Positions 11,258 to 60,736 are shown, counted from the first letter of the stretch. The stretch: DNA of 64,000 nt from Candidatus Campbellbacteria bacterium (GCA_024653945.1 JANLIT010000001.1:20641-84640); one strand, 5' to 3'. Translations and numbers: made by a program. Notes: generated from the letters alone by a model not told the origin.

Positions 11258-11465
11258 CCCGTTAGAAATGCCCGTTGAAGGTAGATACTGTTTCATAAAT
11301 ACTATGTAGCGAGGTGTAACCTCGCTCATGATTAGAGAATATGAGAACAGAATATCATTTTTACCCCCCCCCGCACATTTTTTGTGTATAACTTTTAAAA
11401 CGTAGAGACCGGACCCTTAGGAGGTCCGGTCTCTACAACCTCTTCCGAGGGTTACACCTCCAAAA

Positions 11466-13796: not shown

Positions 13797-13973
13797 CGGA
13801 TCAATAATCTATACGACCAAGATACCACGTTACACTTCAATGGTAAAATAGCCTGCACAAAAAAGGAGATTTTGTTGGTATCATTTACAATTGATTGAAT
13901 GTGCTCTTGTCTGAGAAAATGATTCGTCCAACTCACACCCTGACCTGAGGACCCAATCCCCAAGAGCTTCAAA

Positions 13974-14261
13974 TTGCATCGTAAAGATAACGTTGTACAC
14001 TATGTGGGTATGTTGAGTACATCATCTTCAGATTTTTTTAGCAAAACGTCATCCGTTCTTCCCGACACACTCTCCCCCACTGCGTTGTGGATATTTGTTG
14101 CGATTGCAGTTGTTGTTTGGGCACTATGTGCTGGTATTTTGTGGTATCACTGGAACGCATATGACGCAAAAAGTAAGCGCCTAAAACGTATTAAGCGAAT
14201 TTTCTTTACTGGCTCCGTTGTGATTTTACTCCTTGCGGTCACTTTTATTTTCTCCCTATGA
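13974..14261 (+). CDS. small membrane protein (2 TM helices)
   Basis: Hydrophobic segments. The stop overlaps the next ORF (ATGA coupling). Confidence 0.4.
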   Translation: MHRKDNVVHYVGMLSTSSSDFFSKTSSVLPDTLSPTALWIFVAIAVVVWALCAGILWYHWNAYDAKSKRLKRIKRIFFTGSVVILLLAVTFIFSL

Positions 14262-14821
14262 GCATTGAGCACCTTGTACAACTAGAGAATGACGAGCGTG
14301 TGTTGCTTGAGGTGCGACGACACATGTTTATACTCTATACAAAAATGGCGTTCTTGCTCATTTTATTTTTTATTCCACTTGGTCTTTCTCCCCTCCTCGC
14401 AACCCTTATAGATAAAGTGACGGGAGGTATGTATGGGAGTATTCTGATAGGTTTTCTTTTTATGTTGTGGTGTCTTTTTTTGTGGGTTCTCTTTTTCTTT
14501 TACTGGACCAACTATTATCTTGATGTGTGGGTTGTTACCAACAAACGTATTTTTGATATTGAACAAAAGTCAATTTTTCGTCGTGAAATTTCTGTTACTC
14601 GACTAGAGCAAGTGCAAGACGTAACGATTTCCATCAACGGCATTTTTGCAACATTTATGAAATTCGGAGATATCCACATCCACACCGCCGGAAGTGAAAT
14701 TGACTTCACTATAAAAAACGCAGCCGACCCACTTATGGTAAAAGAAACAATCATGAGAGCCCATGGTGAGACCTACCAACCCCTCCAAACGCAAGGTCTC
14801 CAGCAAACCCACACGGAATAG
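14258..14821 (+). CDS. membrane protein with a bacterial PH domain (YdbS/YdbT-like, DUF304)
   Basis: Two N-terminal TM helices, then a ~90-aa domain (RIFDIEQKSIFRREISVTRLEQVQDVTISINGIFATFMKFGDIHIHTAG) typical of the bPH_2 family. Confidence 0.6.
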   Translation: MSIEHLVQLENDERVLLEVRRHMFILYTKMAFLLILFFIPLGLSPLLATLIDKVTGGMYGSILIGFLFMLWCLFLWVLFFFYWTNYYLDVWVVTNKRIFDIEQKSIFRREISVTRLEQVQDVTISINGIFATFMKFGDIHIHTAGSEIDFTIKNAADPLMVKETIMRAHGETYQPLQTQGLQQTHTE

Positions 14822-14847
14822 AAAATAAAACCCCGATTATCGGGTTT

Positions 14848-17148
14848 TTATTTTGCCACGTGTACTGCCTCATCAAATGAAACAGAGAGCAGTTGGGAGA
14901 TAGCGTCTGCTCCCATCGTAATTCCGTAGAGAACTCCAGCTCGGGACATGGTCTCGCGATTGTGTGTAATCAAAATAAGTTGTGTTTTCTTTGAAAGATT
15001 TTCAATCATATCGCCGTAGCGTTTTGAGTTTGCTTCATCCAGTGCAGCGTCTGTTTCGTCTAAAATAATGAATGGTGGAGGATTCACCTGCGACATTGCA
15101 AAGATAAGTGCAATTGACGTCAGCGCACGTTCGCCACCTGAAAGCATTTCAAGACCGTGAATTTTTTTGCGCGGAAGCGCAACATGGATTTCAACACCTT
15201 CAAACACTTTTTCTTCACCCTCTGCCCCATCTTCAGTACCATCATCATCTTCAATATCTTCAATATCTGTGTCTCGTTTTATTTTGCGAACTTCGCGCAC
15301 TATTTCAAGAGATGCATTTCCACCATTAAACATGAGCGAGAAGAATTCGGAGAACTGCACATTTATTTTCTTTACACCTTCGGCAAATTCACGCGCGAGC
15401 GTTTCTTCAAGATCGGTGATGAGCGCGTGCAAGGACTCTGCTGATTGTTCCAAATCGGCAACTTCTTTTTCTAAAAACGCATCACGTTGTGAGACCTCTT
15501 CAAATTCTTTCATAATATCGTCTCCGCCACCGCTTCCCGCATCCTCAAGACGAACTTTCGTTCGCTCAATTTGTCGCTTGCGTTCGTGCTGTTCAGAACG
15601 TTCTTCAACAACACCACTCTCGGCAAGTGCACGAGATAGATCATCAAACCGAACTGCCTCAACGCCTACCAGTGCCCCTGCTTCAAGTAATTCCCGTTTG
15701 TATTCTTCTTCTTCAAGTTTGAGTGTGCTTTTTTCGCTCGTCAGTACCTGGATATGCATGCGAACTTCTTGTTGTTCGTTTGAGAGTGTGAAAATGCGTC
15801 GTTCCATTTCGCGTCCTGAGTGTATGTCAGATTCAATGGTGTGTTGGATTTTTTTGTATTCCTCCGCGTACTTTTTCTCTTCAGCATCTAGCGTGGCAAT
15901 TTCTCCTTCTCGTTTCTTTTTGTCATGTTCAAGTGAGGAAATATTTTCTCGCACCTCGGCGATATCATTGTCACGAGCCGTTTCACCACGCACCGTGTTC
16001 ATAAACTCAGACACGAGCGTCTTGATAGCACTGAGTGCGGCCTTAAACTCTGCTGGATCACCTTGAGACAATGCGCTGTCTATCAAACGTCCGAGAGAGG
16101 TCGTCATTGATGAGACGGACGTAAACGGGACGGTCTTGTGCGCTTCTTCGGTTTGTTTGCGTTCTTCTTTTGCAAGGAGTGTTCGCAGAGCGGAAATTTC
16201 TCCTTCAATGCGTCCAACCTCTCGAACGGCCAAATCTTTCTTCTCACGAATGCTTCTCATTTTTTCTTCCGAGGAAAGGAGTGCGTCTGATGTTACGTCT
16301 TTTTGAGAGAGTTTCTGTAATTCTTCTCGGGCGTGTGTGATATCTTTTTGCAGTTCAAGCATTCGTTTCTCCAACGGGTCCAGCTCGTACGTAATACGTT
16401 TGAGTGTCGCATCAAGGTACGCTTTTTCACGGGCGAAATAATCTCGGTACGCCTGTTTCAAATCAAGTGCCAGTTCGCGCGCCTTTTCAACTTTCGCGAC
16501 TTGTTTATGTAAAAATGCGAGGTGTGGTTTGAGTTCACGGCGAATACTTTCCACTTTGTCTAAATTCTCTTGTGTTTTTTCCAACTTACGCTCACTCTCA
16601 TCTTTTTTGTAGTGATAGATTTTCAATCCCAACGCGTCTTCAATCATTGCTTTGCGCTCACGCGTGTTCACCGACAAAATTCTGTCCGCTTCTCCTTGAG
16701 AAATAATGTGGTGACCAGATGCGCCGATGTGTGCGCCAGAGAGCAGTTCAATCGTGTCTTTCAATCGCACCACTGAATCATTGAGACGATACTCGCTCGT
16801 TGCGTCACGATGAATGACTCGCTCAAGGACTACTTCATCAAAATCAATGGCAAACAAACGTCCCGATTCGGAGACATTGCCACGAGCCGTATTATCAAAA
16901 GTAAGCTTGACATGAGCGCGGTTGCTTCGCGGGGAGGTTTTTGAACCATTCCAAATGAGGTCCTCAGTGCGCTTACCGCGCATTGATTTGATTGACTGCT
17001 CACCAAGAACAAACCGAAACGACTCGGCAATATTTGATTTACCAGAGCCGTTCGGGCCGACAATGGCCGTAATGGGTGTTTTAAATTCAAGCGACGCTTT
17101 TTTGGCGAACGATTTGAATCCGGAAAGTTCTAGAGATTTGAGGTACAT
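14848..17148 (-). CDS. smc: SMC-family chromosome-segregation ATPase, short form with no recognisable hinge
   Basis: N-terminus MYLKSLELSGFKSFAKK...ITAIVGPNGSGKSNIAESFRFVLGEQSIKSMRGKRTEDLIWNGS (Walker A). C-terminus LSGGERALTSIALIFAMSQVNPPPFIILDETDAALD (signature and Walker B). Only 766 aa. Confidence 0.85.
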   Translation of the reverse strand: MYLKSLELSGFKSFAKKASLEFKTPITAIVGPNGSGKSNIAESFRFVLGEQSIKSMRGKRTEDLIWNGSKTSPRSNRAHVKLTFDNTARGNVSESGRLFAIDFDEVVLERVIHRDATSEYRLNDSVVRLKDTIELLSGAHIGASGHHIISQGEADRILSVNTRERKAMIEDALGLKIYHYKKDESERKLEKTQENLDKVESIRRELKPHLAFLHKQVAKVEKARELALDLKQAYRDYFAREKAYLDATLKRITYELDPLEKRMLELQKDITHAREELQKLSQKDVTSDALLSSEEKMRSIREKKDLAVREVGRIEGEISALRTLLAKEERKQTEEAHKTVPFTSVSSMTTSLGRLIDSALSQGDPAEFKAALSAIKTLVSEFMNTVRGETARDNDIAEVRENISSLEHDKKKREGEIATLDAEEKKYAEEYKKIQHTIESDIHSGREMERRIFTLSNEQQEVRMHIQVLTSEKSTLKLEEEEYKRELLEAGALVGVEAVRFDDLSRALAESGVVEERSEQHERKRQIERTKVRLEDAGSGGGDDIMKEFEEVSQRDAFLEKEVADLEQSAESLHALITDLEETLAREFAEGVKKINVQFSEFFSLMFNGGNASLEIVREVRKIKRDTDIEDIEDDDGTEDGAEGEEKVFEGVEIHVALPRKKIHGLEMLSGGERALTSIALIFAMSQVNPPPFIILDETDAALDEANSKRYGDMIENLSKKTQLILITHNRETMSRAGVLYGITMGADAISQLLSVSFDEAVHVAK

Positions 17149-25099: not shown

Positions 25100-26842
25100 T
25101 TGATTATGAATAAACATACCCCAGAAGAACTTGCCCCGATGCGCCACACGCTCTCGCACCTCATGGCCGCGGCAGTTTTAGAAATATATCCAGATGCAAA
25201 GCCGACCCTGGGGCCTGCCGTGGACAATGGTTTTTACTACGACTTTGACTTTCCTACCCCAATTGTCGACACTGACCTCAAGGAAATTCAGAAGCGGATG
25301 AAAAAAATGCTGTCATCGTGGAAAGAGTTTACACATGAGGAGGTTTCAAAAGAAGATGCACTTAAACGATTTGCAGGGAACGAATACAAAGAAGAACTCA
25401 TCAATGAGATTGCTTCCCGTGGGGAAAAAATAACACTCTACACATGTGGAGGATTTACCGATTTATGTCGTGGGGGACATGTTGACCATCCATCACAAGA
25501 TATTGATGCCGACAGTTTCAAAATCTCACATCTTGCCGGTGCGTACTGGCGCGGAGATGAAAAAAATAAAATGCTCACACGCATCTATGGTTTTGCATTT
25601 GCAACAAAAGAAGACCTTGAAGCATACGAGACACAAATTGAAGAGGCAAAAAAACGTGACCATAAGAAACTTGGACGCGAACTAGGTTTGTTTATGTTTC
25701 ACGAGACGGCACCAGGTATGCCATATTGGCTCCCTAAAGGACTTATTGTCTATAACGAGCTAGTTAACTTTTGGCGAGAAGAACACACACGTTTAGGCTA
25801 CCAAGAAATTGCCAGTCCGCTTGTAAACAAAGCTGAACTCTGGCACACATCTGGGCACTGGGAACACTACAAGGAAGATATGTTTATTGCGGACATGGGA
25901 GAAAATGAAGTATATGGAATTAAACCAATGAACTGTCCAAACGCCATGATAGTGTTTCAGTCTATGCAAGTAAGTTACCGAGACCTTCCTCTTCGACTTT
26001 CAGACACTGACCGTTTACACCGATACGAGCGTTCAGGAACACTCAACGGTCTCTTGCGCGTTCGCTCCTTCCAACAGGACGATTCTCACAACTTTATCTC
26101 AGAGGACATGATTGCATCAGAGTACGAACATATTTTTGAAATATGTAAAAAATTCTATGGTATTTTTGGTCTCGACTACTCATTCCGTATGGGGACACGT
26201 CCAGAAAAGTTCCTTGGTGATAAAGAGACCTGGGATAAGGCAGAAGAGGCACTACGAGGTATTCTTGAAAAATCAGATAAAGAGTATGTTGTTGCCGAAG
26301 GTGATGGCGCATTTTACGGTCCAAAAATCGATATTATTATGAAAGATACACTTGGCCGTGATTGGCAGATGGGCACCATACAGCTGGACTTCCAACTTCC
26401 TCGTCGGTTTGATCTCTCCTATGCCGCTGCAGATGGTACCAAGAAAACACCCGTTGTTGTTCACCGAGTCATTTACGGTTCTCTAGAACGCTTCATTGGT
26501 ATTATCATTGAGCATTTTGCTGGCGCACTTCCAACATGGCTCTCACCGATACAAATCTCCATCTTGCCCATTTCTGAAAAACATCTCACAAAAGCACGAG
26601 AACTAACCACGGCTCTGCAATCAGAAAACATCCGTGTACATTGTGATGATTCAAACGAGACACTTGGCAAAAAGATTCGTACGTGGAAGATAGGAAAAAA
26701 CCCATACGCACTTGTTCTCGGTGATAAAGAGGTAGAGAGTGGTGAACTCACGCTTGAAAAACGCTCTGGTGAAAAGGAAACCATTTCTCTTGAGGCACTT
26801 ATTGCAAAACTAAAAACAGAAATCTCAACCCGAGCTCTCTAA
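25100..26842 (+). CDS. thrS: threonyl-tRNA synthetase (no N-terminal TGS domain)
   Basis: HLMAAAVLEIYPDAKPTLGPAVDNGFYYDFDF marks the start of the editing/second domain. Class II motifs and an anticodon-binding C-terminus are present. Confidence 0.9.
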   Translation: MIMNKHTPEELAPMRHTLSHLMAAAVLEIYPDAKPTLGPAVDNGFYYDFDFPTPIVDTDLKEIQKRMKKMLSSWKEFTHEEVSKEDALKRFAGNEYKEELINEIASRGEKITLYTCGGFTDLCRGGHVDHPSQDIDADSFKISHLAGAYWRGDEKNKMLTRIYGFAFATKEDLEAYETQIEEAKKRDHKKLGRELGLFMFHETAPGMPYWLPKGLIVYNELVNFWREEHTRLGYQEIASPLVNKAELWHTSGHWEHYKEDMFIADMGENEVYGIKPMNCPNAMIVFQSMQVSYRDLPLRLSDTDRLHRYERSGTLNGLLRVRSFQQDDSHNFISEDMIASEYEHIFEICKKFYGIFGLDYSFRMGTRPEKFLGDKETWDKAEEALRGILEKSDKEYVVAEGDGAFYGPKIDIIMKDTLGRDWQMGTIQLDFQLPRRFDLSYAAADGTKKTPVVVHRVIYGSLERFIGIIIEHFAGALPTWLSPIQISILPISEKHLTKARELTTALQSENIRVHCDDSNETLGKKIRTWKIGKNPYALVLGDKEVESGELTLEKRSGEKETISLEALIAKLKTEISTRAL

Positions 26843-26899: not shown

Positions 26900-27268
26900 T
26901 TAGAAAAGTACCAGGGATCCACCTCCACCAAGAAGAAGTACGAGTGCTCCGGCAAGTAACACAATATCAAATTCCCATCCCATTTTATCCATAGCAGAGA
27001 AGGGTACGTGCCACTTTACTAACTTAAAGTAGAGAGCGCCAAGCATAACAATCGCAAGGCCGAGGGCGGATAGTTTAAAAAGAAGACCGGTGATAACACC
27101 GAGTCCACCAAGTATTTCAACTAACCCAACAAACAACACCATGCCGGCAGACATGCCCACCATCGGAGCAAGTTTTTTTGCGCTTCTCACTTTTGGAAGC
27201 CCGTGGTAGATAAAGACAACTCCCATTGCTAGGCGAAGTGCTAAAAGTCCTAAATTACTGTAGTCCAT
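26900..27268 (-). CDS. DoxX-family membrane protein
   Basis: 122 aa with 4 TM helices. The LALRLAMGVVFIYHGLPK motif is typical of DoxX. Confidence 0.65.
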   Translation of the reverse strand: MDYSNLGLLALRLAMGVVFIYHGLPKVRSAKKLAPMVGMSAGMVLFVGLVEILGGLGVITGLLFKLSALGLAIVMLGALYFKLVKWHVPFSAMDKMGWEFDIVLLAGALVLLLGGGGSLVLF

Positions 27269-27391: not shown

Positions 27392-28249
27392 CTACTGGGA
27401 GGGCCAGGTGGGCATGAAGCCCTTCGGTTCTGGGATTACTCGACCCGGCGCGAAGGGTGACTCCATCACCGCACCAGTCCACCGAGACATGTCTCCCGTT
27501 TCAAAGCCATCCCGAAAGATGTCAGGTGTCCAAAGAACAACGGTTGTCGTCCCGCTGTTCTGGTACCCGTTCACCGAGTACCCGCCAGAGATGATGATGT
27601 TCTCCGTACGAATGTACTCGGCGGTCTCGTCGAGAATCGCCTGATCCGGGGTCGTTCCCCCAGGCCAGTATCCGTTCCCGACACCAACGTAGTAGAGCGC
27701 ATCCAAAACCGTCGAGTCGGATTCGCCGGAATTGTAGACGATGTCGTCACCGCCACCGAGTACCCGGTCGGGACCGTAGTTCACCCCTACACGCGTCGTT
27801 CCGTTGAGGGTTGTACCGACGAGGCTACCGATGTAGTTGAGCTGGCCGTCCGAGCTCAGAATGGCGAACTGAACGTTCGCCAAGGTGAACCACTCCAAAC
27901 CGTCGCCCAAGGCGACGAGCCCGAAGTGCATCCTGTTGCCATACTCGCCGTTGAATGGTGCTGGAGGTTCCGAGATGCCGCGCCACGAGCTGAAGCTCGT
28001 GACCATGACGTCGCCCGGGAAGTACCGGACGAGCGCCGAGTACGCTGTTGGGTCCGTCTCGCGGTCTCCAACGACCGAAAGACCGTTTTGAAGCGCGTTC
28101 ATGGCGTTCGCCAGGTAACCGCTCCAGCTCGGCGAGCCGAAGCCATTCGGCGCCGGCGAAGCATAGACATTGACCAAGATGTCGGCCGATACTGCCGTCG
28201 GCAAAGCGACGACGAACAGAACTGCGAGGACTACGACGAATCTCTTCAT
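27392..28249 (-). CDS. secreted hypothetical protein, GC-rich (~58%)
   Basis: ATG at 28249 with an AAGGAG SD. Signal peptide MKRFVVVLAVLFVVALPTAVSA. Gly/Asn/Thr-rich, beta-rich-looking. Confidence 0.5.
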   Translation of the reverse strand: MKRFVVVLAVLFVVALPTAVSADILVNVYASPAPNGFGSPSWSGYLANAMNALQNGLSVVGDRETDPTAYSALVRYFPGDVMVTSFSSWRGISEPPAPFNGEYGNRMHFGLVALGDGLEWFTLANVQFAILSSDGQLNYIGSLVGTTLNGTTRVGVNYGPDRVLGGGDDIVYNSGESDSTVLDALYYVGVGNGYWPGGTTPDQAILDETAEYIRTENIIISGGYSVNGYQNSGTTTVVLWTPDIFRDGFETGDMSRWTGAVMESPFAPGRVIPEPKGFMPTWPSQ

Positions 28250-28353
28250 CTTTCTTCTCCTTGTTGTTAGAGAACAAAAAAGAGGCACGATGCCTCCTCA
28301 TAACCACAAGAATTCTACATTATTCTCATGTTCTTGTCTAGACCACCCTTCTC

Positions 28354-28755
28354 TCACCCACGCTCATTTTTAAACTTCTCTCGTTCACGCTTCCGTACTC
28401 CTTTTTCGTCAAGACCAAAGTGGTGACCGATTTCGTGCCACAGTGTTTCGTATATAACGTCGGGAAGTGTTTTGCCTAACTCCTGTGCATGCCTTTCCAA
28501 GGGTGTTTTGTACAATGTGATAACGTCGGGATACGCAAAACCAGCGTCGTTACTTCGTTTTGTTCTTGGAACGCCGGTGTACAGTCCGAGAAGATCTGAC
28601 TGAGGAGAAAGCTTCAGTTTTTTCCTCGTTTTTTCATCAACACTTTCTTCAACAAGTATGGCAACATTTTTCACAAGCATGCGAAATTTCTCCGGAAGAC
28701 GCACAAACGCTTCCTGTACCATGGCTTCAAATTCTTCACGTGAGATTGCTGTCAT
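28354..28755 (-). CDS. zincin-like metallopeptidase (HExxH; DUF1025/Zincin_1-like)
   Basis: WHEIGHHFGL motif in a ~130-aa protein. Likely start is the Met at 28755. Confidence 0.55.
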   Translation of the reverse strand: MTAISREEFEAMVQEAFVRLPEKFRMLVKNVAILVEESVDEKTRKKLKLSPQSDLLGLYTGVPRTKRSNDAGFAYPDVITLYKTPLERHAQELGKTLPDVIYETLWHEIGHHFGLDEKGVRKREREKFKNERG

Positions 28756-28756
28756 A

Positions 28757-28900
28757 TGATTTTCCAAAATCACGTCGCGCAAGTGTTGATTCTGCAGAAT
28801 CATGTCACGTACTGTCCATTAAAACGTGACCAAAAGCGCGACGTAATGAGCGAAATTGTGTCACGTACCTGATTCTGCGGAATCATGTCGCGAGACCGAT
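28757..28900 (-). promoter_or_regulatory. upstream region of the zincin gene carrying palindromes (gattctgcagaatc twice) and a hairpin gtcacgt-N13-acgtgac
   Basis: Read directly. The hairpin has the same architecture and a near-identical loop (ctgtccatt) as the element upstream of the adjacent ATL gene. Confidence 0.5.
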
Positions 28901-28903
28901 TCA

Positions 28904-29233
28904 TTAAAATTCATACAACACATCCCAGAAATATTTGATGCGGTCATTTTTTTCTATTTCTATTCCCTCTTGTTTGTAGAGTTTCATGCGTTGTGCCCTG
29001 TACTGCTCGTTTATCCAGATTCTCCCATCAGCATATACAATTCTATGAAAAGGGATTGATGCGCCTTCACCCTCTGCTTTTCCAAGTATTGAGGTAATGC
29101 TTTGTGCTGACATTGCACCACCACCTGCACTACGTGCAATACGCCCGTACGTCGTCACACGTCCGCTTGGGATTTTTTGTGCAAGGCGTACAACACGTTC
29201 GCTAAATGTTGGCCCAAGTACTTTTTTCTTCAT
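28904..29233 (-). CDS. alkyltransferase-like protein (MGMT DNA-binding domain with Phe in place of the catalytic Cys)
   Basis: YGRIARSAGGGAMSAQSITSILGKAEGEGASIPFHRIVYADGRI. The MGMT fold motif PCHRV reads PFHRI here. Confidence 0.6.
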   Translation of the reverse strand: MKKKVLGPTFSERVVRLAQKIPSGRVTTYGRIARSAGGGAMSAQSITSILGKAEGEGASIPFHRIVYADGRIWINEQYRAQRMKLYKQEGIEIEKNDRIKYFWDVLYEF

Positions 29234-29234
29234 A

Positions 29235-29283
29235 CGATTTCACAAAATCGCGTCGCGTAACTGTCCATTGAAACGCGACACCC
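29235..29283 (-). promoter_or_regulatory. operator/5'-UTR hairpin gtcgcgt-N14-acgcgac upstream of the ATL gene
   Basis: cgatttcacaaaatcgcgtcgcgt aactgtccattgaa acgcgac. The stem shows compensatory A/G-T/C changes relative to the 28804-28830 copy, while the loop is conserved. Confidence 0.5.
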
Positions 29284-29300
29284 TTATTCTACCATTCGCG

Positions 29301-29351
29301 CGCCTGCCTGCCCTGCCTGCCCTGCCTGCCGGCAGGCAGGCGGCAGGCAGG
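29301..29351. repeat. G/C-rich tandem-plus-inverted repeat (gcctgccct x3, then ggcaggcaggcggcaggcagg), a strong hairpin/cruciform
   Basis: Read directly. It marks the boundary between the ATL gene region and a GC-rich non-coding stretch. Confidence 0.7.
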
Positions 29352-30249
29352 AATTAGGGAATATAAAACGTAAAATATGGAAAATAATAATATGGAATAG
29401 AGAAAAGGCCCGAGCGCAAGCGTCGGACCTCTTCAGTAACTACCGGCGACCGGCAATGATACTGGAAAAAAGAACGGAATCTACGTCGACCTCTGGAGCG
29501 AACTCCTGAGGATAGATTAAGACGTTGGGAACAGAGCGGCCTATCGCTCTTGGATGATTTTGCGTGTCGCGACCGAAGTCGAGAGCACGTGTCCTGGGTT
29601 GGACATCATCCGTTCCCACGAGCCCTGTGTTTCACTGATGTGTCACACAGAACCATTACCGAGTTATTGCAGAAAGGGTGAGCTCCCTGCGATTTCTCGT
29701 TTGCCTCTGAGGCGATCGTGACCAATTCCTTTTAAGGGCGCTGGTCTCGTTCGTTGTGATGATGTCTGAAGGGTTTTGAGTCCTCCGAACACCCCACTGT
29801 AGAAGTTGTCGATTCTGCCGCAAGCGACAGAGTGCTAGGTCCGACATCTCCTCCTGGTGCAATGGAAACCGAGTTGCTCGCAAGATTGCTCCCGCGTGCT
29901 TCTCTCCCATAGTTTCCCTCGGCTCATTCCACGTTGTCTCACATCGACATTCCCTTTGAGGAGAAGCAAACCGAAGTTCGCAGTCATCCCAACTGGACTA
30001 TCGCGTCTGATGCTAGGCACCGGACTGAAGTGGTTTCAGAGAGAACATTGCACTGTTCTCCTTACCGTGTAACCAATCACTCTCGGTTTGTTGTGGTCCT
30101 CTTGCGAGAGCCGTAACGTACCGCATGCTTGGTATGTGAGAAGTATACGGATAGTGAAGTTGTTGTCAATCACATATCTCGTTTCTCAATAAAAAATACC
30201 TTTCGTCAAATTTTTTGTTTAAATGCATCCCTGTACCGAAAACAGCACG

Positions 30250-30278
30250 TTGACATACAGGAGATACCTGTATACTAT
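30250..30278 (+). promoter_or_regulatory. sigma70-type promoter TTGACA-N17-TACTAT whose spacer is a perfect palindrome (tacagg agat acctgta), a candidate operator
   Basis: -35 at 30250-30255, -10 at 30273-30278, exact 17-bp spacer. The inverted repeat spans 30256-30272. Confidence 0.6.
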
Positions 30279-30558
30279 CCATTTTGGTTCAGGCAAACAC
30301 TCGGTGGCTTGCTGGTCTTTCTGGGGGCGGGGATGAGCCCAAACCTAGAGAGTTTAAAGGGCGATGAGCCCGAACAGCCAATAGTAGACAGGAAACTGCT
30401 ACTGTTTCGAGGGTTCAATTCCCTTGGGGTGGCGGAGAGATGATCTTGAGTAGCGTAGACTAGGCGGGAGACGGAGAAGCTTTGGCTCTGGCCAAGGTGG
30501 AGTCGCCACTGAAAAACCGCCCTCTCAGGAAATATGCTCGAAGTCGCTTGAACCACAG

Positions 30559-30592
30559 TGTCACTCTTTCGGGGGTGACATTTTATTTTTTT
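30559..30592 (+). terminator. intrinsic terminator on the + strand (tgtcac...gtgaca followed by ttttattttttt)
   Basis: Hairpin followed by a 12-nt T-rich run. It closes a ~300-nt transcription unit that starts at the 30250 promoter. Confidence 0.5.
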
Positions 30593-30595
30593 ACA

Positions 30596-31162
30596 TTACT
30601 TTTCTCGCCGAAAACAATCAACGGAGTGGTCATTCACCATTCCCGTTGCCTGCATGTGTGCATACACCGTTGTTGAGCCAAGAAACTTAAATCCACGTTT
30701 TTTTAAGTCCAATGCAAGCGCATCCGATTCTTTTATTGTTGGTTTGTAGTCCTTGAGTGTTTTTATTTTGTGTTGGATTGGTTTTCCGCCAACAAAACTC
30801 CATATATATTTTGAAAACGTGCCAAATTCTTTCTGTACTTCAAGAAAACGCCGTGCATTGTTAATTGCCGCTTCAATTTTTGCACGGTTGCGAATGATGC
30901 CCTCATTTGTAAGAAGCTGACGTACTTCCCTTTTTCCAAAAAGTGCTACTCTCGAGGGATTAAACTGCGAAAATGCTTTTCTATAGTTTTCTCTTTTGCG
31001 CAACACCGTGAGCCACGAAAGACCGGCTTGTGCACTTTCAAGCACGAGAAATTCAAAAATCTTTTTGTCGTCATATACAGGAACACCCCACTCTTCGTCG
31101 TGGTACTTCTCATAGAGTTCGTCACCAATTTTGATCCACGGACAACGTTTTTTCATACACAC
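30596..31162 (-). CDS. tag: DNA-3-methyladenine glycosylase I
   Basis: YHDEEWGVPVYDDKKIFEFLVLESAQAGLSWLTVLRKRENYRKAF...IIRNRAKIEAAINNA matches the Tag family. Confidence 0.85.
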   Translation of the reverse strand: MCMKKRCPWIKIGDELYEKYHDEEWGVPVYDDKKIFEFLVLESAQAGLSWLTVLRKRENYRKAFSQFNPSRVALFGKREVRQLLTNEGIIRNRAKIEAAINNARRFLEVQKEFGTFSKYIWSFVGGKPIQHKIKTLKDYKPTIKESDALALDLKKRGFKFLGSTTVYAHMQATGMVNDHSVDCFRREK

Positions 31163-31308
31163 ATTCTACCACTGTAAAAAGAGCCCTAATATAATATAAA
31201 AAAGAAAAGATGCCCGACACCATTTTTCATTTTTACTGGCGTTTTAATATATTAGATTGACTCTTCTCGTGCCTCGATAATTTATCTTAATTAATTTTAG
31301 AGTTGTAA

Positions 31309-32535
31309 TTATTTAATATTTTTAATTATAGATTTGAATTCAGGCTTATTCTTATAAAAAGTGAAAATTTCCCATTCGTCTATTTCTTTTTTTCCTACGG
31401 TTTTTGCCTTGATTAATTTACTTAAATATTTATAAAAATCTTTGTGTTTTTCCAATAAAGCAAATTTACACATCTCAAAATCATCTCTAGTTAAGCTCCA
31501 ATCTTCTAACAGTAAAACTTTTTCTATATCTTCCAATTTTTTCCCTTGTTTTTTTAATCCAATACAGTAGTTAATAGCTATGTATTTTTTCTCAGAAGCA
31601 TCTATTTTGAGATTTGAAATAAAATTATATATGGATTTTGTATAATTATATTGTTCATGTTTGACTAAATAATGTAATGGATTGGTTAATAAAAAATTTT
31701 TATTTTTTATTTCTTCAGAAAAGTTAAGTTGAGCTTCTTGAATGATATAAGTTCCTATAAAATACAATAAGTAAAGTGAATCGGTAAGATATTTGTCTGT
31801 TATAGTTATAGTTTTGTTTGAATTATTTTTTTCGTCTCCATATCTTTTAATATACTCTCGATCCTTTTTTCCTTCATTGTGAACAATAAGATTTCTTATT
31901 TTAATTAATTTTTTTAAATCTTCCAAATTTTTACTAATTGGATCTAAATTAAGAGCCATGTCCTTTTTTAAAACTTTTAGTTTTCGATCTAATCCTTTTT
32001 CAATCAAAAGAGCTTCAATTTCTCTGTCAATTAGAAATTTTTGGGCCTCTGCTATGTTTTCTATATTTTCTAGCTCTTTATAGTTGATTGACTGATTTTC
32101 TAATGATAATTTCTTGTAATTCTTTTTATAATAAAAACTAAATAATTTCGAAAGTAAAATATCTAAAGTTGAAACCATAGACACTATAGTATTTTGTGCA
32201 AATAAATGTCCTTGTAATGGTTGTGTCTTTAAAACATCAACAAGTATCTCAGAAACATTACTTAATTCTTTTTTTGAAAATTTAAGTTTTAACTTACCTT
32301 TGGCATGATTTTTATTTTCCTTGGCTTTTTTCTTTAATACTTCCAAAAAGGGTTTAAGCTTTTTATTGTCATATTCTTGCGCATGTTTCCCAATTTCTCT
32401 AATTGATATTTCTTGAAGAAAAATATTGTTTTCAAAAACATTCTGCATATGTCTAAAAGAATCAATGTTCGTATTTGCCTCCCCTTTGATTAACTTTGTT
32501 TGTTGTTTTATTTTTGGTATCTTTTTAGTCTTCAT
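31309..32535 (-). CDS. Lys-rich hypothetical protein with a HEPN-like Rx4H motif (putative abortive-infection/defence RNase); extremely AT-rich (~27% GC)
   Basis: The motif KIRNLIVHNEG (R-x4-H) sits mid-protein in a 408-aa protein. Composition is roughly 15-30 points below its neighbours. It is a single gene with no operon partners. Confidence 0.5.
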   Translation of the reverse strand: MKTKKIPKIKQQTKLIKGEANTNIDSFRHMQNVFENNIFLQEISIREIGKHAQEYDNKKLKPFLEVLKKKAKENKNHAKGKLKLKFSKKELSNVSEILVDVLKTQPLQGHLFAQNTIVSMVSTLDILLSKLFSFYYKKNYKKLSLENQSINYKELENIENIAEAQKFLIDREIEALLIEKGLDRKLKVLKKDMALNLDPISKNLEDLKKLIKIRNLIVHNEGKKDREYIKRYGDEKNNSNKTITITDKYLTDSLYLLYFIGTYIIQEAQLNFSEEIKNKNFLLTNPLHYLVKHEQYNYTKSIYNFISNLKIDASEKKYIAINYCIGLKKQGKKLEDIEKVLLLEDWSLTRDDFEMCKFALLEKHKDFYKYLSKLIKAKTVGKKEIDEWEIFTFYKNKPEFKSIIKNIK

Positions 32536-32737
32536 ATTTATATGATATATCTTAAGAAATAGGGTCAGGCACCTTTTAATATCCCCACCATACACCCGAA
32601 AAACGAAAAGACAATGTGCACGAACAGTGGCAAGATTAAACCTCGCTCACGTAAAACCAAAAAGCCAAGTAAAAGAAAAGCCGCGTCCCGGGAGTTGTAT
32701 CCGGAAACGCGGTCTCAAAAAAGTGGTCAAACAGAGT

Positions 32738-33232
32738 CTAGAACGGCAACTCATCCTCCAACTCATCGAGAAGGATTGGCACCAGTGAATTACTGCTTAC
32801 TTCGGCAATCGCTTGAACACCACCTTCCTCGAGTAGACCACTCCCGATGGCGATGGTTAGCACGATTACCTCATCACCGTGTTCAGGGAACCCAGAGAAT
32901 GCAATGACAAGATTGCCGGCTCTGATACCACCGCCGTAGTGCTTCGGCTCAGTGTTGAGGTCGCGGCTCTGCCAAGCACTCACGTGGCCACGATTCTCCA
33001 GGAGTCGCTTGCCCTTGTCGAGAGCATTGGCGAGACACCGGCCCCGCCGAGCAACGTCATTCATGTTGCCCACCAGAGCAGAAAGTACTGGTGATGCGTC
33101 CGGACCGGCGTCGTTATCAAAAACGCACAGATAACCGCCAAGATTCCCGTCCTCAACCATCTGGGAAAGAGTCCTGGAACCAAGCGCCCTTTCAGCGAGC
33201 CGGAGAATTTTACCCAAATTTGGATATATCAC
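32738..33232 (-). CDS. GlcG/HbpS-like (DUF336) protein, GC-rich (~55%)
   Basis: LCVFDNDAG ... YGGGIRAGNLVIAFSGFPEHGDEVIV resembles the GlcG-family blocks. Weak. Confidence 0.35.
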   Translation of the reverse strand: MIYPNLGKILRLAERALGSRTLSQMVEDGNLGGYLCVFDNDAGPDASPVLSALVGNMNDVARRGRCLANALDKGKRLLENRGHVSAWQSRDLNTEPKHYGGGIRAGNLVIAFSGFPEHGDEVIVLTIAIGSGLLEEGGVQAIAEVSSNSLVPILLDELEDELPF

Positions 33233-33332
33233 GTAGACCTCTCCTTCTTCGGTTTAATCCTAGGAACCGCCTAGTACGGGTTCACACCTGCCGTGAGTAT
33301 ACTCACAAGGACAAATTTGTAAAGAAAAGAAT

Positions 33333-33424
33333 CATGTGACCCTATCGGGATTCGCCTCTCGCCGTACTCGGCTCGAAACCTTCGGCGTCTCTTCGACGCC
33401 TGCGGCCCGCGGTTCGAATCCCTG
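33333..33424. other. tRNA-like remnant: a partial duplicate of the 3' end of tRNA-Glu (tgtgaccctatcgggattcgcc against tgtgacctcatcgggattcgaa), plus a GGTTCGAATCC T-loop-like motif with no foldable cloverleaf
   Basis: A 20-of-22-nt match to the 3' end of the adjacent tRNA. I could not fold a canonical tRNA. Confidence 0.35.
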
Positions 33425-33475
33425 GACTCACAAAAGAAAATACCCCAGATGAACTGAGATATTTTCTTTCGCGTG

Positions 33476-33550
33476 TGACCTCATCGGGATTCGAACCCGA
33501 GTTTACACCTTGAGAAGGTGACGTCCTGGACCAGGCTAGACGATGAGGCC
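33476..33550 (-). tRNA. tRNA-Glu (anticodon CUC)
   Basis: The reverse complement folds as a cloverleaf: acceptor GGCCTCA/TGAGGTC, D-arm with GG, anticodon loop TTCTCAA, T-arm TCGGG-TTCGAAT-CCCGA, discriminator A. CCA is not encoded. Confidence 0.8.
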
Positions 33551-33675
33551 GTGTTGCACAGGATAACGAAAATAAGAACATCAGGCAAGGAATATTCTTT
33601 TTGATTGACTAAAAAAAGTCTATGTATAGTATACCTATAGACACGTTCACAAAGTGCAACCAAGGGGGAGTCCAA

Positions 33676-33942
33676 ATGAACAGTCTCACCGCTCTGATGT
33701 TTGTGGTGTACTTCGGCTTCATCCTTGCCGTAGTGAACATCAAACCACTCTCAGATGCACTCATCGGCACCAACCAGGATACGGGAGAAAGTCATCCTGT
33801 GGCACTCCGGATCATCGGAGGCGCCGTCTACTTCCCGATCTGTAGCGTCGTGCTGTTCTGTCTGGGATGGTTGATGCTGAAGTTGGGGGGATTCATGCTT
33901 CTCCCCTTCCAGTACCTGTACAACCTACTCCCTACGACGTAG
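33676..33942 (+). CDS. small membrane protein (2-3 TM helices)
   Basis: The ATG is preceded by AAGGGGGAG. Hydrophobic helices. Confidence 0.45.
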   Translation: MNSLTALMFVVYFGFILAVVNIKPLSDALIGTNQDTGESHPVALRIIGGAVYFPICSVVLFCLGWLMLKLGGFMLLPFQYLYNLLPTT

Positions 33943-34090
33943 ACATCGCGAAGTTCTTGGGAGGCGGCAACCGAGCATGGTTGCCGCTTTTCTATTACAT
34001 TGATTTTGTTAGAGTTTTAAACTCTAACAGGATTGACAACTTCTGTTTCAGGTAGAGAATGGGTCTAGAAACAAAAGGAGGAGGTACCCA

Positions 34091-34303
34091 ATGCTTCCAA
34101 TGAAATTTCCTGTAGGAACGGTAGTTGAAGCAGTTCTCCATCACAGTATGGGTGATGTTGGCGTTGTAGTGAGTGCTGTAGAAAAAACATCACCTGGCTA
34201 CAAGAATGGTGAGCTCTTTCTCCAGTACACATTCAAACTCTTGGGCGACAACGGCACACGCGAAATGCCTGAGTTCTGGCTCAAGCAGTGCGAGAGAAAG
34301 TAA
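34091..34303 (+). CDS. small hypothetical protein (70 aa)
   Basis: Very strong SD (AAAGGAGGAGG) seven nt before the ATG. A hairpin at 34306-34340 follows the stop. Confidence 0.45.
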   Translation: MLPMKFPVGTVVEAVLHHSMGDVGVVVSAVEKTSPGYKNGELFLQYTFKLLGDNGTREMPEFWLKQCERK

Positions 34304-34393
34304 GGCCCGACACGATGGTTTGTGCCGGGTTTCTGTTTTTATCTTTCTGTCCACCTACAACCTGTTCGCGTAAGCGCTCACAACGGTTGTTGC

Positions 34394-34573
34394 TCGCCAA
34401 ATGGCGAGCACCAGATTAAAAGATAAGCAGTTATCTTTTAATCCACCTCCTTTCGGTCGGATATAAATCTCCACAGGAGATCTATATCCACCTACGGTCT
34501 ACTTCGCCTTGCTCAGTAACGACCGTTGCACTTCGTGCACCGGAGCAAACGCTAAGCAGTTAGCGTTTGCTCC
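34394..34573. repeat. three consecutive palindromes with 4-nt centres: ctcgccaaatggcgag; ttaaaagataa-gcag-ttatcttttaa; ggatataaatctcc-acag-ggagatctatatcc; ggagcaaacgctaa-gcag-ttagcgtttgctcc
   Basis: Read directly. Two of them share the core TAAGCAGTTA. The last overlaps the murF stop codon. Confidence 0.7.
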
Positions 34574-35843
34574 ATTCTGTCCCCTGTCGTACTAAAAGTG
34601 AATCTGCTTGCTCTGGGTGTGCAAGAAGTTCTTTGGTAACGTGTTCAACGCGCACCGATTGAGAACCTTTGAGTAATACAACATCACCCTCTTTTAAAAT
34701 ACTTTTTACAAAAAGCCCCGCCTCTTGAGAAGCATCAAAACTTTCAACTCGCATCACACCAGTATCTTTTGCACTTTGTACCGCACCTCGCATGCGACTA
34801 CCGACCGTCACCAACACATCAATACCCGAACACCACGTCCCAACATCCGCATGCGCACTTTCTGAAAATTTTCCAAGTTCCATCATGTCTCCCAAGACAG
34901 CGATTTTTCGTTTTCCTTTAATATCCTGCAGTGTTTTGAGAGCACTCTCTACGGCAACAGGAGATGCGTTGTACGTATCATCTATCAAGGTTGCATTGTG
35001 AAGCCCTTTGAGAAGACGCATGCGCCCCGGGGGAAGCACCACAGTACGTAAGGCATCCGTTACACCTACCAAGTTGAGTCCTTGAGAAAGTCCAAAAGCA
35101 CATGCAGCAAGACATGGATACATGAGATGTTGCCCCACAACACCACGTAGTTCAAAGGGAACGATGTTGCCCCCATGAATTATTTTAAATGCGCATCCTG
35201 TTGGTGCTCCTGTATCGTCATACACAACAGAATAGAAATCGCCCCGAACATCTGCGTTGTCATTGCGCCCGTAGGTGAGTGTTTTGTGTGTTGAAGCATC
35301 TTTCAAACCTAGCACCTGTTCGTCATCATAGGAGAGGACGAGTGTTCCTTTTTGGCACAGACCATCAATAATCTTCTTTTTTTCCTCAAACACTTCCTGC
35401 GGAGAAGAAAAAAATTCAACGTGTACGGGAGTAACGCCCACATGCGTGATAATCGCACTATCAAGGCGTACCCACGATACTGAACGCTTCATATCCCCTG
35501 GGTGATCTACCCCCATTTCAAGAACAAGCCACTTTGGATATGGTTTTGAAAAAATAATAAGACCTATACCATGAAAAAAAACCTGTAGCCACCCCGAAGC
35601 ACTCCCCCACGCAGTTTCGCATCCAAGTACCGTCAGAGGAATACCGAGTTCCGAGTTATAACTTTTTTCACTTGCGCGCACTGAACCAAAAAGTGTAGCA
35701 ACACTGGCAACAGCATCTTTGGTTGAGGTTTTACCAACACTTCCTGTGATACCAACGATGTACGGCGCATACTTCGCCAAAATAATTCGCGCCTCAAGTG
35801 TGAGGAGGATAACAACTATTTTTTTAAAAAAAGATTTAATCAT
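34560..35843 (-). CDS. murF: UDP-N-acetylmuramoyl-tripeptide--D-alanyl-D-alanine ligase
   Basis: IVGITGSVGKTSTKD P-loop, with Mur ligase middle and C-terminal domains. Confidence 0.85.
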   Translation of the reverse strand: MIKSFFKKIVVILLTLEARIILAKYAPYIVGITGSVGKTSTKDAVASVATLFGSVRASEKSYNSELGIPLTVLGCETAWGSASGWLQVFFHGIGLIIFSKPYPKWLVLEMGVDHPGDMKRSVSWVRLDSAIITHVGVTPVHVEFFSSPQEVFEEKKKIIDGLCQKGTLVLSYDDEQVLGLKDASTHKTLTYGRNDNADVRGDFYSVVYDDTGAPTGCAFKIIHGGNIVPFELRGVVGQHLMYPCLAACAFGLSQGLNLVGVTDALRTVVLPPGRMRLLKGLHNATLIDDTYNASPVAVESALKTLQDIKGKRKIAVLGDMMELGKFSESAHADVGTWCSGIDVLVTVGSRMRGAVQSAKDTGVMRVESFDASQEAGLFVKSILKEGDVVLLKGSQSVRVEHVTKELLAHPEQADSLLVRQGTEWSKR

Positions 35844-59915: not shown

Positions 59916-60245
59916 ATGTATGGTAAACTATTGTGTATGGAAACACTTATCCACGCAGATATTTTTTTCTTTATCACAAGCATCTTTGTTGTTCTTCTTA
60001 TCATTACGTTTGGTGTATCAATGTATTACATCATTCCAATTTTTAGAGACCTGCGACACCTCTCAGAAGTCGCGCGAAAAGAAGGTGATAAACTTGTTGG
60101 TGATATTGATGAACTGCGCGGTGCGGTGAAAGAAGAAGGCACGAAGATAAAAACGATTTTTGATTATTTTATTGGATTATTCATTAAACGGCAGAAAATA
60201 AACAAAAAAAAGAAAGCGGGTATTAAAAAAGACAGTAACCAGTAG
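59916..60245 (+). CDS. small membrane protein (one TM helix, then a Lys-rich tail)
   Basis: Hydrophobic helix IFFFITSIFVVLLIITFGV. Confidence 0.35.
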   Translation: MYGKLLCMETLIHADIFFFITSIFVVLLIITFGVSMYYIIPIFRDLRHLSEVARKEGDKLVGDIDELRGAVKEEGTKIKTIFDYFIGLFIKRQKINKKKKAGIKKDSNQ

Positions 60246-60340
60246 AATTACATCGCGCTCTGTGTTACGTTTCTATTAACGGTACGTGACATGATCTCGT
60301 GAGATCAACAATTACGCGATGCGATTTTGTGAAATCGCAC

Positions 60341-60736
60341 ATGAAAAAAACAACAAAAAAGGTGGCGACGGGAGCAGGAATCGCAGTACTCGCAGCAGCG
60401 GCCGCAGGAACATATTTCTTTTACGGGTCAAAACATGCGAAGAAAAATCGTGCTACAGCCAAGGCGTGGTCACACAAAGCAAAAAACGAAGTTATACAAA
60501 AACTAAAGAAAGCGTCAACGATAACCGAAAAAGGATACCACGCAACAGTTAAAGAGGTTGCTGGACGTTACAAAAAACTACAGAAACTTGACCCTAAAGA
60601 AGTCGCCGTGTTTGTGTCAGAACTCAAAAGTCATTGGAAAAATATTTCAAAGGAATTAAAAGCTGGAACAAAAACTGTTCATCACACAAAGAAACCAACC
60701 GCAAAAAAGAAATCGGCCAAGAAAACAAGAAAATAG
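60341..60736 (+). CDS. Lys-rich basic protein with an N-terminal TM/signal anchor
   Basis: MKKTTKKVATGAGIAVLAAAAAGTYFFYG, then a Lys/Ala-rich helical region. Confidence 0.4.
   Translation: MKKTTKKVATGAGIAVLAAAAAGTYFFYGSKHAKKNRATAKAWSHKAKNEVIQKLKKASTITEKGYHATVKEVAGRYKKLQKLDPKEVAVFVSELKSHWKNISKELKAGTKTVHHTKKPTAKKKSAKKTRK

Follow-up and report, generated by a model that had tools for sequence, protein, structure and literature searches.

Conserved genes and variable gaps beside tRNA-Glu in a Campbellbacteria genome, with two candidate structured RNAs, one of which includes a homologue of the 23S L1 stalk

We analysed the interval between murF and thrS in a 64-kb stretch of DNA from Candidatus Campbellbacteria bacterium (GCA_024653945.1, JANLIT010000001.1:20641-84640), a lineage of the candidate phyla radiation (CPR). 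This whole stretch of 64,000 nucleotides (nt) is referred to as the window, and coordinates are window positions unless a comparison locus (L followed by a number) is named. An initial annotation, made from the sequence alone, had presented the region from 28.3 to 34.3 kb as a mosaic integrative island inserted at a tRNA-Glu gene. Comparison with related loci indicates that the interval is a conserved frame of genes with recombination-prone variable gaps, not a single island. One of these gaps holds two divergent non-coding units that are candidate RNAs. The genes are listed below, with percentages of guanine plus cytosine (GC) and Pfam matches where they matter.

25100-26842, plus strand: thrS
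26900-27268, minus strand: DoxX gene, in the zincin/thrS gap, cargo
27392-28288, minus strand: gene for a secreted protein with signal peptide MKRFVVVLAVLFVVALPTAVSA, 59% GC, in the zincin/thrS gap, cargo
28354-28803, minus strand: Zincin_1 metallopeptidase-like gene (zincin), backbone (Pfam PF06262, E 2.9e-24)
28904-29233, minus strand: alkyltransferase-like gene (ATL), backbone (Pfam DNA_binding_1, E 9.8e-14)
29234-30595: stretch without open reading frames (ORFs) between ATL and tag
30596-31162, minus strand: tag, 3-methyladenine DNA glycosylase I, backbone (Pfam Adenine_glyco, E 2.8e-79)
31309-32595, minus strand: HEPN-domain gene (HEPN428), 428 aa, 24.8% GC, cargo
32738-33232, minus strand: near-orphan gene of 164 aa, 54.3% GC, cargo
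33475-33550, minus strand: tRNA-Glu(CTC) (ARAGORN and Rfam, 55.2 bits)
33622-33942, plus strand: orf106, encoding a membrane protein, in the murF/tRNA gap
34091-34303, plus strand: orf70, in the murF/tRNA gap
34560-35843, minus strand: murF; pbp2 was also mapped in the neighbourhood

Pfam bore out the assignments of zincin, ATL and tag made in the initial annotation. The ATL protein (109 aa) consists of the PF01035 domain alone and has PFHR in place of the methyltransferase PCHR, which leaves it without the catalytic cysteine.

The MurF protein of the window is 100% identical to P0001, which NCBI assigns to a Candidatus Campbellbacteria metagenome-assembled genome. Among species-representative genomes, the closest reached MurF identities only up to 48%. 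The window thus belongs to a CPR bacterium of the Patescibacteria (Paceibacteria). The murF neighbourhoods fetched for comparison were L063 (79% MurF identity), L064 (78%) and L065 (73%), followed by the more distant L146 and L147 (62%), L148 and L149 (60%) and L150-L152 (58%); L066 (48%) was located through Tag. Read along murF transcription, that is, in descending coordinates, the window has the order murF, tRNA-Glu(CTC), tag, ATL, zincin, with thrS facing them. The same order was found in all relatives whose loci reach far enough (L063, L064, L065, L146, L150-L152 and L066), with thrS convergent and followed by dnaE, and with different fillers in each. Homologues of tag (65-89% identical) follow tRNA-Glu in every close relative, and in L063 tag begins 3 nt past the tRNA. 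ATL homologues are 81-84% identical in L063, L064, L065 and L146, and zincin homologues occupy the equivalent position in L065, L146, L150 and L066. Some relatives lack ATL; zincin is missing in some as well, and the last gap then lies between ATL and thrS. The shortest form, L150, has tRNA-Glu, tag and zincin only, and the stop codons of murF and thrS are about 1.4 kb apart. Because tag, ATL and zincin are kept in order across relatives, they belong to the backbone and are not cargo, contrary to their initial reading as part of the island.

The four gaps between the backbone genes had different content in each relative examined. Between murF and the tRNA lie homologues of orf106 or orf70, or PhoH-PIN: orf106 is 65% and 49% identical to genes in the same place in L063 and L064, and orf70 is 69% identical to a gene in L065. 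The tag/ATL gap holds a DUF4406 gene in L063, DUF4406 together with metallo-beta-lactamase and LigT genes in L064, seven genes in L065, and BipA with unknown genes in L146. In the gap before thrS (zincin/thrS or ATL/thrS), L063 and L065 carry an NT5C gene plus one that is ParB-like, and other relatives have nothing. In the window, the tRNA/tag gap contains tRNA 3'-end fragments in both orientations, the 164-aa gene and the HEPN gene, and the tag/ATL gap contains the two divergent non-coding units. HEPN428, the 164-aa gene, the secreted-protein gene and the DoxX gene had no homologue at any related locus searched. The same genes in the same order and of the same composition, which would have spoken against gene flux as initially envisaged, were thus not seen in relatives, and the gaps are truly variable. 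Alignment of the regions upstream of tag did not place the left edge of the tRNA/tag insertion.

Patchy composition had been taken as a sign of repeated insertions. Against a window GC of 44.4%, the truly deviant sequences are protein genes: HEPN (25%), the 164-aa gene (54%) and the secreted-protein gene (59%). The two units of the ORF-free DNA, at 52-53% GC, resemble tRNA (57% for tRNA-Glu), which fits structured RNA genes in a 44%-GC genome rather than foreign DNA.

The tRNA gene itself is accompanied by fragments of its own kind.

33433-33550, minus strand: tRNA-Glu(CTC) plus a downstream hairpin shared with L064
33409-33430, plus strand: inverted tRNA-3'-end-like fragment GGTTCGAATCCCTGGACTCACA, between the duplicate and the tRNA
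33335-33354, minus strand: direct duplicate of the tRNA-Glu 3' end (3' part of the T-loop, T stem, acceptor strand and discriminator)

The tRNA-Glu region is 91% identical to that of L064 across 188 nt, and the window's cargo starts about 40 nt past the tRNA, beyond the shared hairpin. The duplicate, which the initial annotation had recognized as a degenerate copy about 120 bp from the intact tRNA, proved real. It matches the window's own tRNA-Glu at 18 of 20 positions and the 3' end of the L063 tRNA-Glu at all 20; about 3e-5 chance matches of such quality are estimated per 8 kb for its 20-mer. The acceptor stems of the two tRNAs differ by two compensated pairs. The perfect match to L063 indicates that slippage did not produce the duplicate, which comes either from a different lineage's tRNA-Glu or from an older allele. 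It lies 120 bp from the tRNA on the cargo-proximal side, not at the distal border; no further copy was found, and no repeat marks a distal boundary. In a blastn self-comparison the tRNA region was also matched in inverted orientation.

Among the relatives, tRNA-Glu is co-oriented with murF in L063, L064, L148 and L066, as in the window, and inverted in L065 (13958-14033), L146 (11934-12011) and L150 (11402-11477). An additional fragment of a tRNA 5' part was seen in L146 at 12103-12146. Two distant Paceibacteria, L158 and L159, carry at 11326-17025 a 573-aa large serine recombinase (Resolvase and Recombinase domains) followed by 5-6 unknown genes on the same strand. This array touches or overlaps the 3' end of the tRNA-Glu(CTC) that directly follows murF, and is probably an integrated element that uses this tRNA, with no long tRNA direct repeat found within 10 kb. 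No homologue of the L158 recombinase was found in the window. These observations are consistent with integrative elements having repeatedly recombined at the tRNA-Glu 3' end and later decayed or been rearranged, a history that we infer for the window from its relatives. By comparison of the loci, the four gaps are a hot spot for recombination within the Campbellbacteria-like CPR lineage.

In the 1.2-kb ORF-free stretch, the initial annotation had noted about 0.9 kb of 52% GC without a credible ORF and, next to it, a terminator-bounded transcript of about 300 nt with a consensus sigma70-type promoter and operator. The ORF-free DNA, the promoter and the terminator are all present, and the stretch resolves into two divergent units, each having a consensus-like promoter plus a terminator on its better-folding strand. 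The initial annotation had missed the unit in antisense orientation, on the minus strand, and the L1-stalk homology of the plus-strand unit.

29405-30135, minus strand: candidate 731-nt structured RNA (the big RNA), 52.7% GC
29408-29421, minus strand: terminator of the big RNA
30142-30169, minus strand: promoter-like site of the big RNA, TTGACA-16-TATACT, 11/12 consensus positions, the best of the region
30250-30278, plus strand: promoter-like site of the small RNA, TTGACA-17-TACTAT
30285-30595, plus strand: candidate RNA of about 300 nt (the small RNA)
30286-30294/30546-30554, plus strand: closing stem of the small RNA
30409-30425, plus strand: T-arm-like hairpin GAGGGUUCAAUUCCCUU in the small RNA (counterpart in L019, GGGUUCGAAUCCC)
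30444-30530, plus strand: homologue of 23S rRNA helices 76-78 (H76-H78, the L1 stalk), Rfam LSU_rRNA_bacteria positions 2119-2249
30557-30582, plus strand: terminator of the small RNA

The small RNA folds better on the plus strand (z -3.5) than on the minus strand (z -1.4). The spacer of its promoter contains a palindrome, ACAGG-AGATA-CCTGT at 30255-30275, which is distinct from those of the ATL and zincin genes described below and may be an operator. Scanned alone, the small RNA gave an Rfam match of 43.8 bits (E 3.5e-12) for the L1-stalk segment, a match that an initial scan of 1.5 kb had missed; nhmmer aligned the segment to E. coli 23S rRNA positions 2108-2199. Beyond this segment, no other 16S or 23S (SSU/LSU) similarity and no contiguous rRNA homology was found in the small RNA, and Rfam returned weak tRNA-like alignments, including one of 15 bits resembling tRNA-Sec. 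Identities as tmRNA (including permuted forms), RNase P, signal recognition particle RNA or 6S RNA were considered and rejected, as neither ARAGORN nor Rfam supported any of them and neither a CCA nor acceptor pairing was conserved.

Blastn and nhmmer among 152 fetched loci gave a single, weak homologue of the small RNA (nhmmer) in L019 at 11446-11683 (minus strand), and none in phage or plasmid collections. In L019, a CPR genome whose MurF is 42% identical, the homologue lies on the opposite strand directly after murF and tRNA-Glu, and the contig end cuts off its 5' part. The two RNAs have in common a GGGUUCRAWUCCC T-arm-like hairpin, AGAGAU, CGUAGA.UA...GGGAGAC and UGGAGUCG..A.UGAAA.ACC, and several helices are changed on both sides, with compensatory changes in helices outside the L1 domain too. 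The closest relatives of L019 (L156-L160) lack the small RNA, and a covariance model built for it (R1) found no further member across 1.67 Mb of CPR loci, so that its distribution is sporadic, as expected of cargo. Loci beyond the first 152 were searched for the small RNA with this model only, and viral loci retrieved by 16-mers were searched with nhmmer.

The pattern of common blocks matched two phage contigs in IMG/VR, L153 at 2484-2566 (119 kb) and L154 at 478-573 (70 kb). The phage copy is an isolated 83-nt Rfam match to LSU rRNA (positions 2129-2212, 55 bits) and is part of a cluster of tRNA genes. A small ORF and a promoter flank the copy, a U-run comes after it, and no other rRNA lies nearby. 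A separate viral scan with a pattern of T-arm, AGAGAT and GTAGA returned ordinary tRNAs only. When the sequences from the window, L019, phage and E. coli are aligned, 98.4% of the pairs of distal H76, H77 and H78 are formed, 9 of 16 pairs show double changes, and the unpaired blocks of the tertiary fold are invariant. By these alignments, the small RNA contains a faithful L1-stalk module within an RNA that is otherwise not rRNA-like.

The T-arm of the L019 homologue (11587-11602, GGGUUCGAAUCCCGAU) shares all 16 nt with that of tRNA-Glu in the window (33482-33497) and does not match the tRNA-Glu of L019 itself (GCGGUUCGAUUCCGCG). This identity could be the trace of an att (attachment) site or a coincidence.

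The ribosomal L1 stalk binds uL1 and stacks on the elbow of the E-site tRNA, and the known extra-ribosomal mimic of it is the uL1 operator on the rplKA mRNA. The small RNA would be a composite in which a 5' domain and a T-arm-like hairpin precede a copy of the 23S L1 stalk (H76-H78). Its loops and junctions keep the residues that contact uL1 and the E-site tRNA elbow in ribosomes, while the stems covary. With low confidence, we read the small RNA as a free-standing L1-stalk mimic that binds uL1 or the tRNA elbow; that it sequesters uL1, docks the tRNA elbow or serves as a decoy for a stalk-targeting factor is conjecture. Literature searches on L1-stalk mimics ('L1 stalk mimic', 'L1 stalk-like' RNA) and on CPR non-coding RNAs returned nothing relevant.

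The promoter-like site of the big RNA lies 80 bp from that of the small RNA. The minimum free energy of the big RNA is -282 kcal/mol, and its z score is -5.15 for the minus strand as compared with -1.33 for the plus strand. Of the 16 hairpins in the minimum-energy fold, 6 carry GNRA, UNCG or CUUG tetraloops, against none on the plus strand and a mean of 0.16+-0.39 (maximum 2) in 100 dinucleotide shuffles. No ORF longer than 84 aa is present at 29405-30135. A hidden ORF with one recoded stop codon was rejected on the mixed stop codons in every frame; a pseudogene was also considered, and no ORF fragment gave a Pfam match in any frame. Searched in chunks of about 400 nt with lax filters, the big RNA matched no Rfam family at E<=5, and no blastn or nhmmer homologue was found among the 152 fetched loci or in phage and plasmid collections. 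Two 16-mers from its loops gave 13 chance matches in a viral scan, around which nhmmer found no extended similarity. Complementarity between the big and the small RNA did not exceed that of shuffles (24/200). Judged as a single sequence, the big RNA is a good candidate for a large structured RNA, which is the most likely reading of this DNA; its class would be an undescribed one.

We then considered the proteins of the tRNA/tag gap. HEPN428 belongs to a family with 1399 cluster representatives, mostly of 400-450 aa (exhaustive HMMER search). The Rx4H motif that the initial annotation had seen in this AT-rich gene corresponds to R234 and H239 (RNxxVHN), which are invariant in an alignment of 52 members; 14 of the 52 match Pfam PF18735 HEPN_RiboL-PSP (best E 9.4e-7). 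HEPN428 itself had no Pfam or PADLOC match. The invariant residues and the family's HEPN_RiboL-PSP matches support the Rx4H reading, and the helical-bundle fold of HEPN proteins was found as well. The gene thus encodes a HEPN-domain protein and predicted RNase, plausibly one that serves in defence or as a toxin. No recognisable partner gene, MNT or other antitoxin, accompanies it. For the neighbouring 164-aa gene the GC-rich composition described initially was correct, and its label as GlcG-like (DUF336) found no support: the protein had no Pfam match at E<=10 and no PDB match. A single homologue (P0391, 61% identity) was found among 5.8 billion proteins, and the AlphaFold2 model (pLDDT 51) was too poor for a fold search.

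Several palindromes and hairpins lie around the zincin and ATL genes.

28803-28830, minus strand: hairpin GTCACGT-13 nt-ACGTGAC, within the module at the zincin start (28757-28892)
28757-28779, 28787-28809 and 28870-28892, minus strand: three palindromes TGATTYY..RRAATCA at the zincin start
29235-29279, minus strand: module upstream of ATL, with hairpin GTCGCGT-14 nt-ACGCGAC (29252-29279) and palindrome GCGATTTTGTGAAATCG
29300-29352: G/C-rich palindrome of about 51 bp with CCTGCC repeats / GGCAGG

The covarying hairpins that the zincin and ATL genes had been said to share are present: they are one compensated base pair apart and have the loop AATGGACAGT in common. Each is followed by a palindrome of the TGATTYY..RRAATCA type, a pattern that occurs 0.01 times on average in shuffles. 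A third module was found at 60235-60340 (plus strand), with a -10-like TAGAAT, the hairpin GTTACGT...ACGTGAC and the palindromes TGATCTCGTGAGATCA and GCGATTTTGTGAAATCGC, directly upstream of a gene for a Lys-rich membrane-anchored protein (ATG at 60342), 31 kb from ATL and zincin. The ATL module is kept in L063 with a further compensatory stem change (GTCGCGC...GCGCGAC); in the remaining relatives neither ATL nor zincin has such a module upstream. Together, ATL, zincin and the third gene look like a small lineage-specific regulon in which a hairpin, acting as RNA or DNA, precedes palindromic operators. The third copy of the module marks ATL and zincin as host genes.

The G/C-rich palindrome is likewise where it had been reported. 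Its core (CCTGCCTGCC/GGCAGGCAGG-like) has 22-nt matches at 91-95% identity in CPR loci L038 (12804-12825 and 5379-5400) and L039 (1365-1386), from Moranbacteria and a Parcubacteria metagenome-assembled genome, and may be a widespread terminator or an element like repetitive extragenic palindromes (REP). Around the end of murF, two hairpins with 13-bp stems were observed at 34405-34445 and 34534-34574 (minus sense). Their stems are wholly different and fully compensated, and they share the loop CUGC, the closing UAA/UUA and the 3' flank GGUGCWCG. The 5' arm of the hairpin at 34534-34574 is formed by the last codons of murF and its stop codon, and the window holds these two copies only.

Taken together, we consider it probable that the interval consists of a conserved backbone whose variable gaps received integrated cargo, including the two candidate RNAs. 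The further proposal that both units are functional, undescribed RNAs carried as cargo of integrative DNA, one a representative of an ornate class of about 730 nt and the other a trans-acting L1-stalk RNA with the phage copy as its minimal relative, is possible but somewhat doubtful. Several points weigh against these readings. The big RNA has no homologue in anything searched and so no covariation support, and the small RNA has one partial homologue only. Covariation in the L1 domain could stem from the 23S rRNA of each host and not from selection on the small RNA. For both units the case is built from consensus promoter and terminator matches and folding statistics. As for integration, Pfam detected no recombinase or integrase domain in any ORF of the interval (the negative covers the interval, and the Pfam survey of the whole window is given for 25 of 61 families), and neither an integrase nor a clear att pair flanks any of the window's gaps; the history of integration is therefore read from relatives and from short tRNA fragments. 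A group of Parcubacteria, 'OD1-L1', was reported to be without uL1 (PMC5220378), and a uL1-binding role is unlikely if the host belongs to it.

The ORF-free stretch might alternatively be debris, composed of a decayed foreign gene or element, a scrap of 23S rDNA and a tRNA T-arm, with fortuitous promoters and terminators. The lack of homologues of the big RNA, the abundance of tRNA fragments at the site and the absence of the stretch from the closest relatives would fit such an origin, and consensus scans are no proof of function. Debris would hardly be expected to fold strongly on one strand, to hold six stable tetraloops where 0.16 are expected, or to have back-to-back near-consensus promoters, each matched by a terminator on the better-folding strand. 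Nor would it readily account for L1-stalk loops that are conserved while the stems covary, for the composite of T-arm, AGAGAU, L1 stalk and tail being kept in a CPR lineage with 42% MurF identity, or for the lack of Pfam signal in any reading frame. We regard this origin as unlikely.

That the whole region of 28.3-34.3 kb is one mosaic integrative island at tRNA-Glu, with zincin, ATL and tag as cargo, appears very unlikely. Adjacency to the tRNA, the real 3'-end duplicate and the patchy GC speak for it. Synteny already largely refutes it: the order of tag, ATL and zincin is kept in relatives down to 48% MurF identity. Moreover, the duplicate lies 120 bp from the tRNA and not at a far boundary, neither an integrase in the interval nor a serine-recombinase homologue in the window was found, and the ATL and zincin genes share their operator with a gene 31 kb away. 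The initial interpretation is thus partly supported overall. Gene flux at the tRNA, the tRNA fragments and inversion, and the recombinase of L158 and L159 agree with it; a single 6-kb island bounded by tRNA repeats does not.

Finally, it is extremely improbable that the small RNA belongs to a 23S rRNA encoded in fragments, with an L1 stalk specified separately and joining the ribosome in trans: the high-fidelity H76-H78 homology with conserved tertiary residues and the known unusual rRNA genes and ribosomes of CPR bacteria (PMC5220378) would be in keeping with it, but relatives with 58-79% MurF identity lack the RNA at this locus, its distribution is sporadic and island-like, and it contains extra non-rRNA domains.

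The backbone with variable gaps is in itself an ordinary kind of locus, a tRNA-linked hot spot of gene flux, but a clean CPR example of one, and the mobile DNA of CPR bacteria is poorly known. In the literature searched we found no description of a stand-alone, apparently expressed copy of the L1 stalk such as the predicted small RNA. Such a copy is seen again beside tRNA-Glu in a distant CPR lineage, and phage carry a minimal form in a cluster of tRNA genes. If the L1-stalk reading is true, the RNA would couple a hairpin resembling the tRNA elbow to a full stalk and could bind uL1, a deacylated tRNA of the E-site type, or a factor or toxin that targets the stalk. If functional, it would point to rRNA mimicry in trans as a tool of mobile elements, by decoy, sequestration or an interplay of translation and defence beside a HEPN RNase. 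The big RNA, of 731 nt, would be a new large structured RNA in a lineage from which none is known.

We compared these features with known systems. HEPN428 differs from HEPN-MNT toxins and RiboL-PSP-HEPN proteins in being much larger than toxins of toxin-antitoxin (TA) type and in having no recognisable MNT or antitoxin; set beside RNases of the HEPN superfamily, it reaches no Pfam model, and its RNase role is predicted. Like tRNA-linked islands, the locus has cargo of atypical composition 3' of a tRNA, a partial duplicate of the tRNA 3' end, presence/absence variation, and a recombinase element at the same tRNA in related genomes. Unlike them, it has no integrase in the interval and a repeat that does not delimit the cargo, its variable DNA is split over four gaps, and part of its cargo consists of candidate non-coding RNA genes. 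With GOLLD, ROOL and OLE, large ornate RNAs of bacteria and phages that are often found close to tRNA genes in prophages, the big RNA shares a length of several hundred nt, a highly structured predicted fold without an ORF, an accessory distribution and a tRNA or tRNA-like neighbourhood in mobile DNA. The big RNA differs from GOLLD, ROOL, OLE and HEARO in matching none of their Rfam models, and it is known from a single copy with no consensus structure. The closest parallel for the small RNA is the rplKA uL1 operator, where a non-ribosomal RNA also reproduces the uL1-binding part of 23S H77-H78. In the window, however, this part belongs to a stand-alone unit bounded by a promoter and a terminator, not to the leader of a ribosomal-protein operon, and the RNA carries the full distal H76, H77 and H78 at rRNA-level identity, joined to a T-arm-like hairpin.

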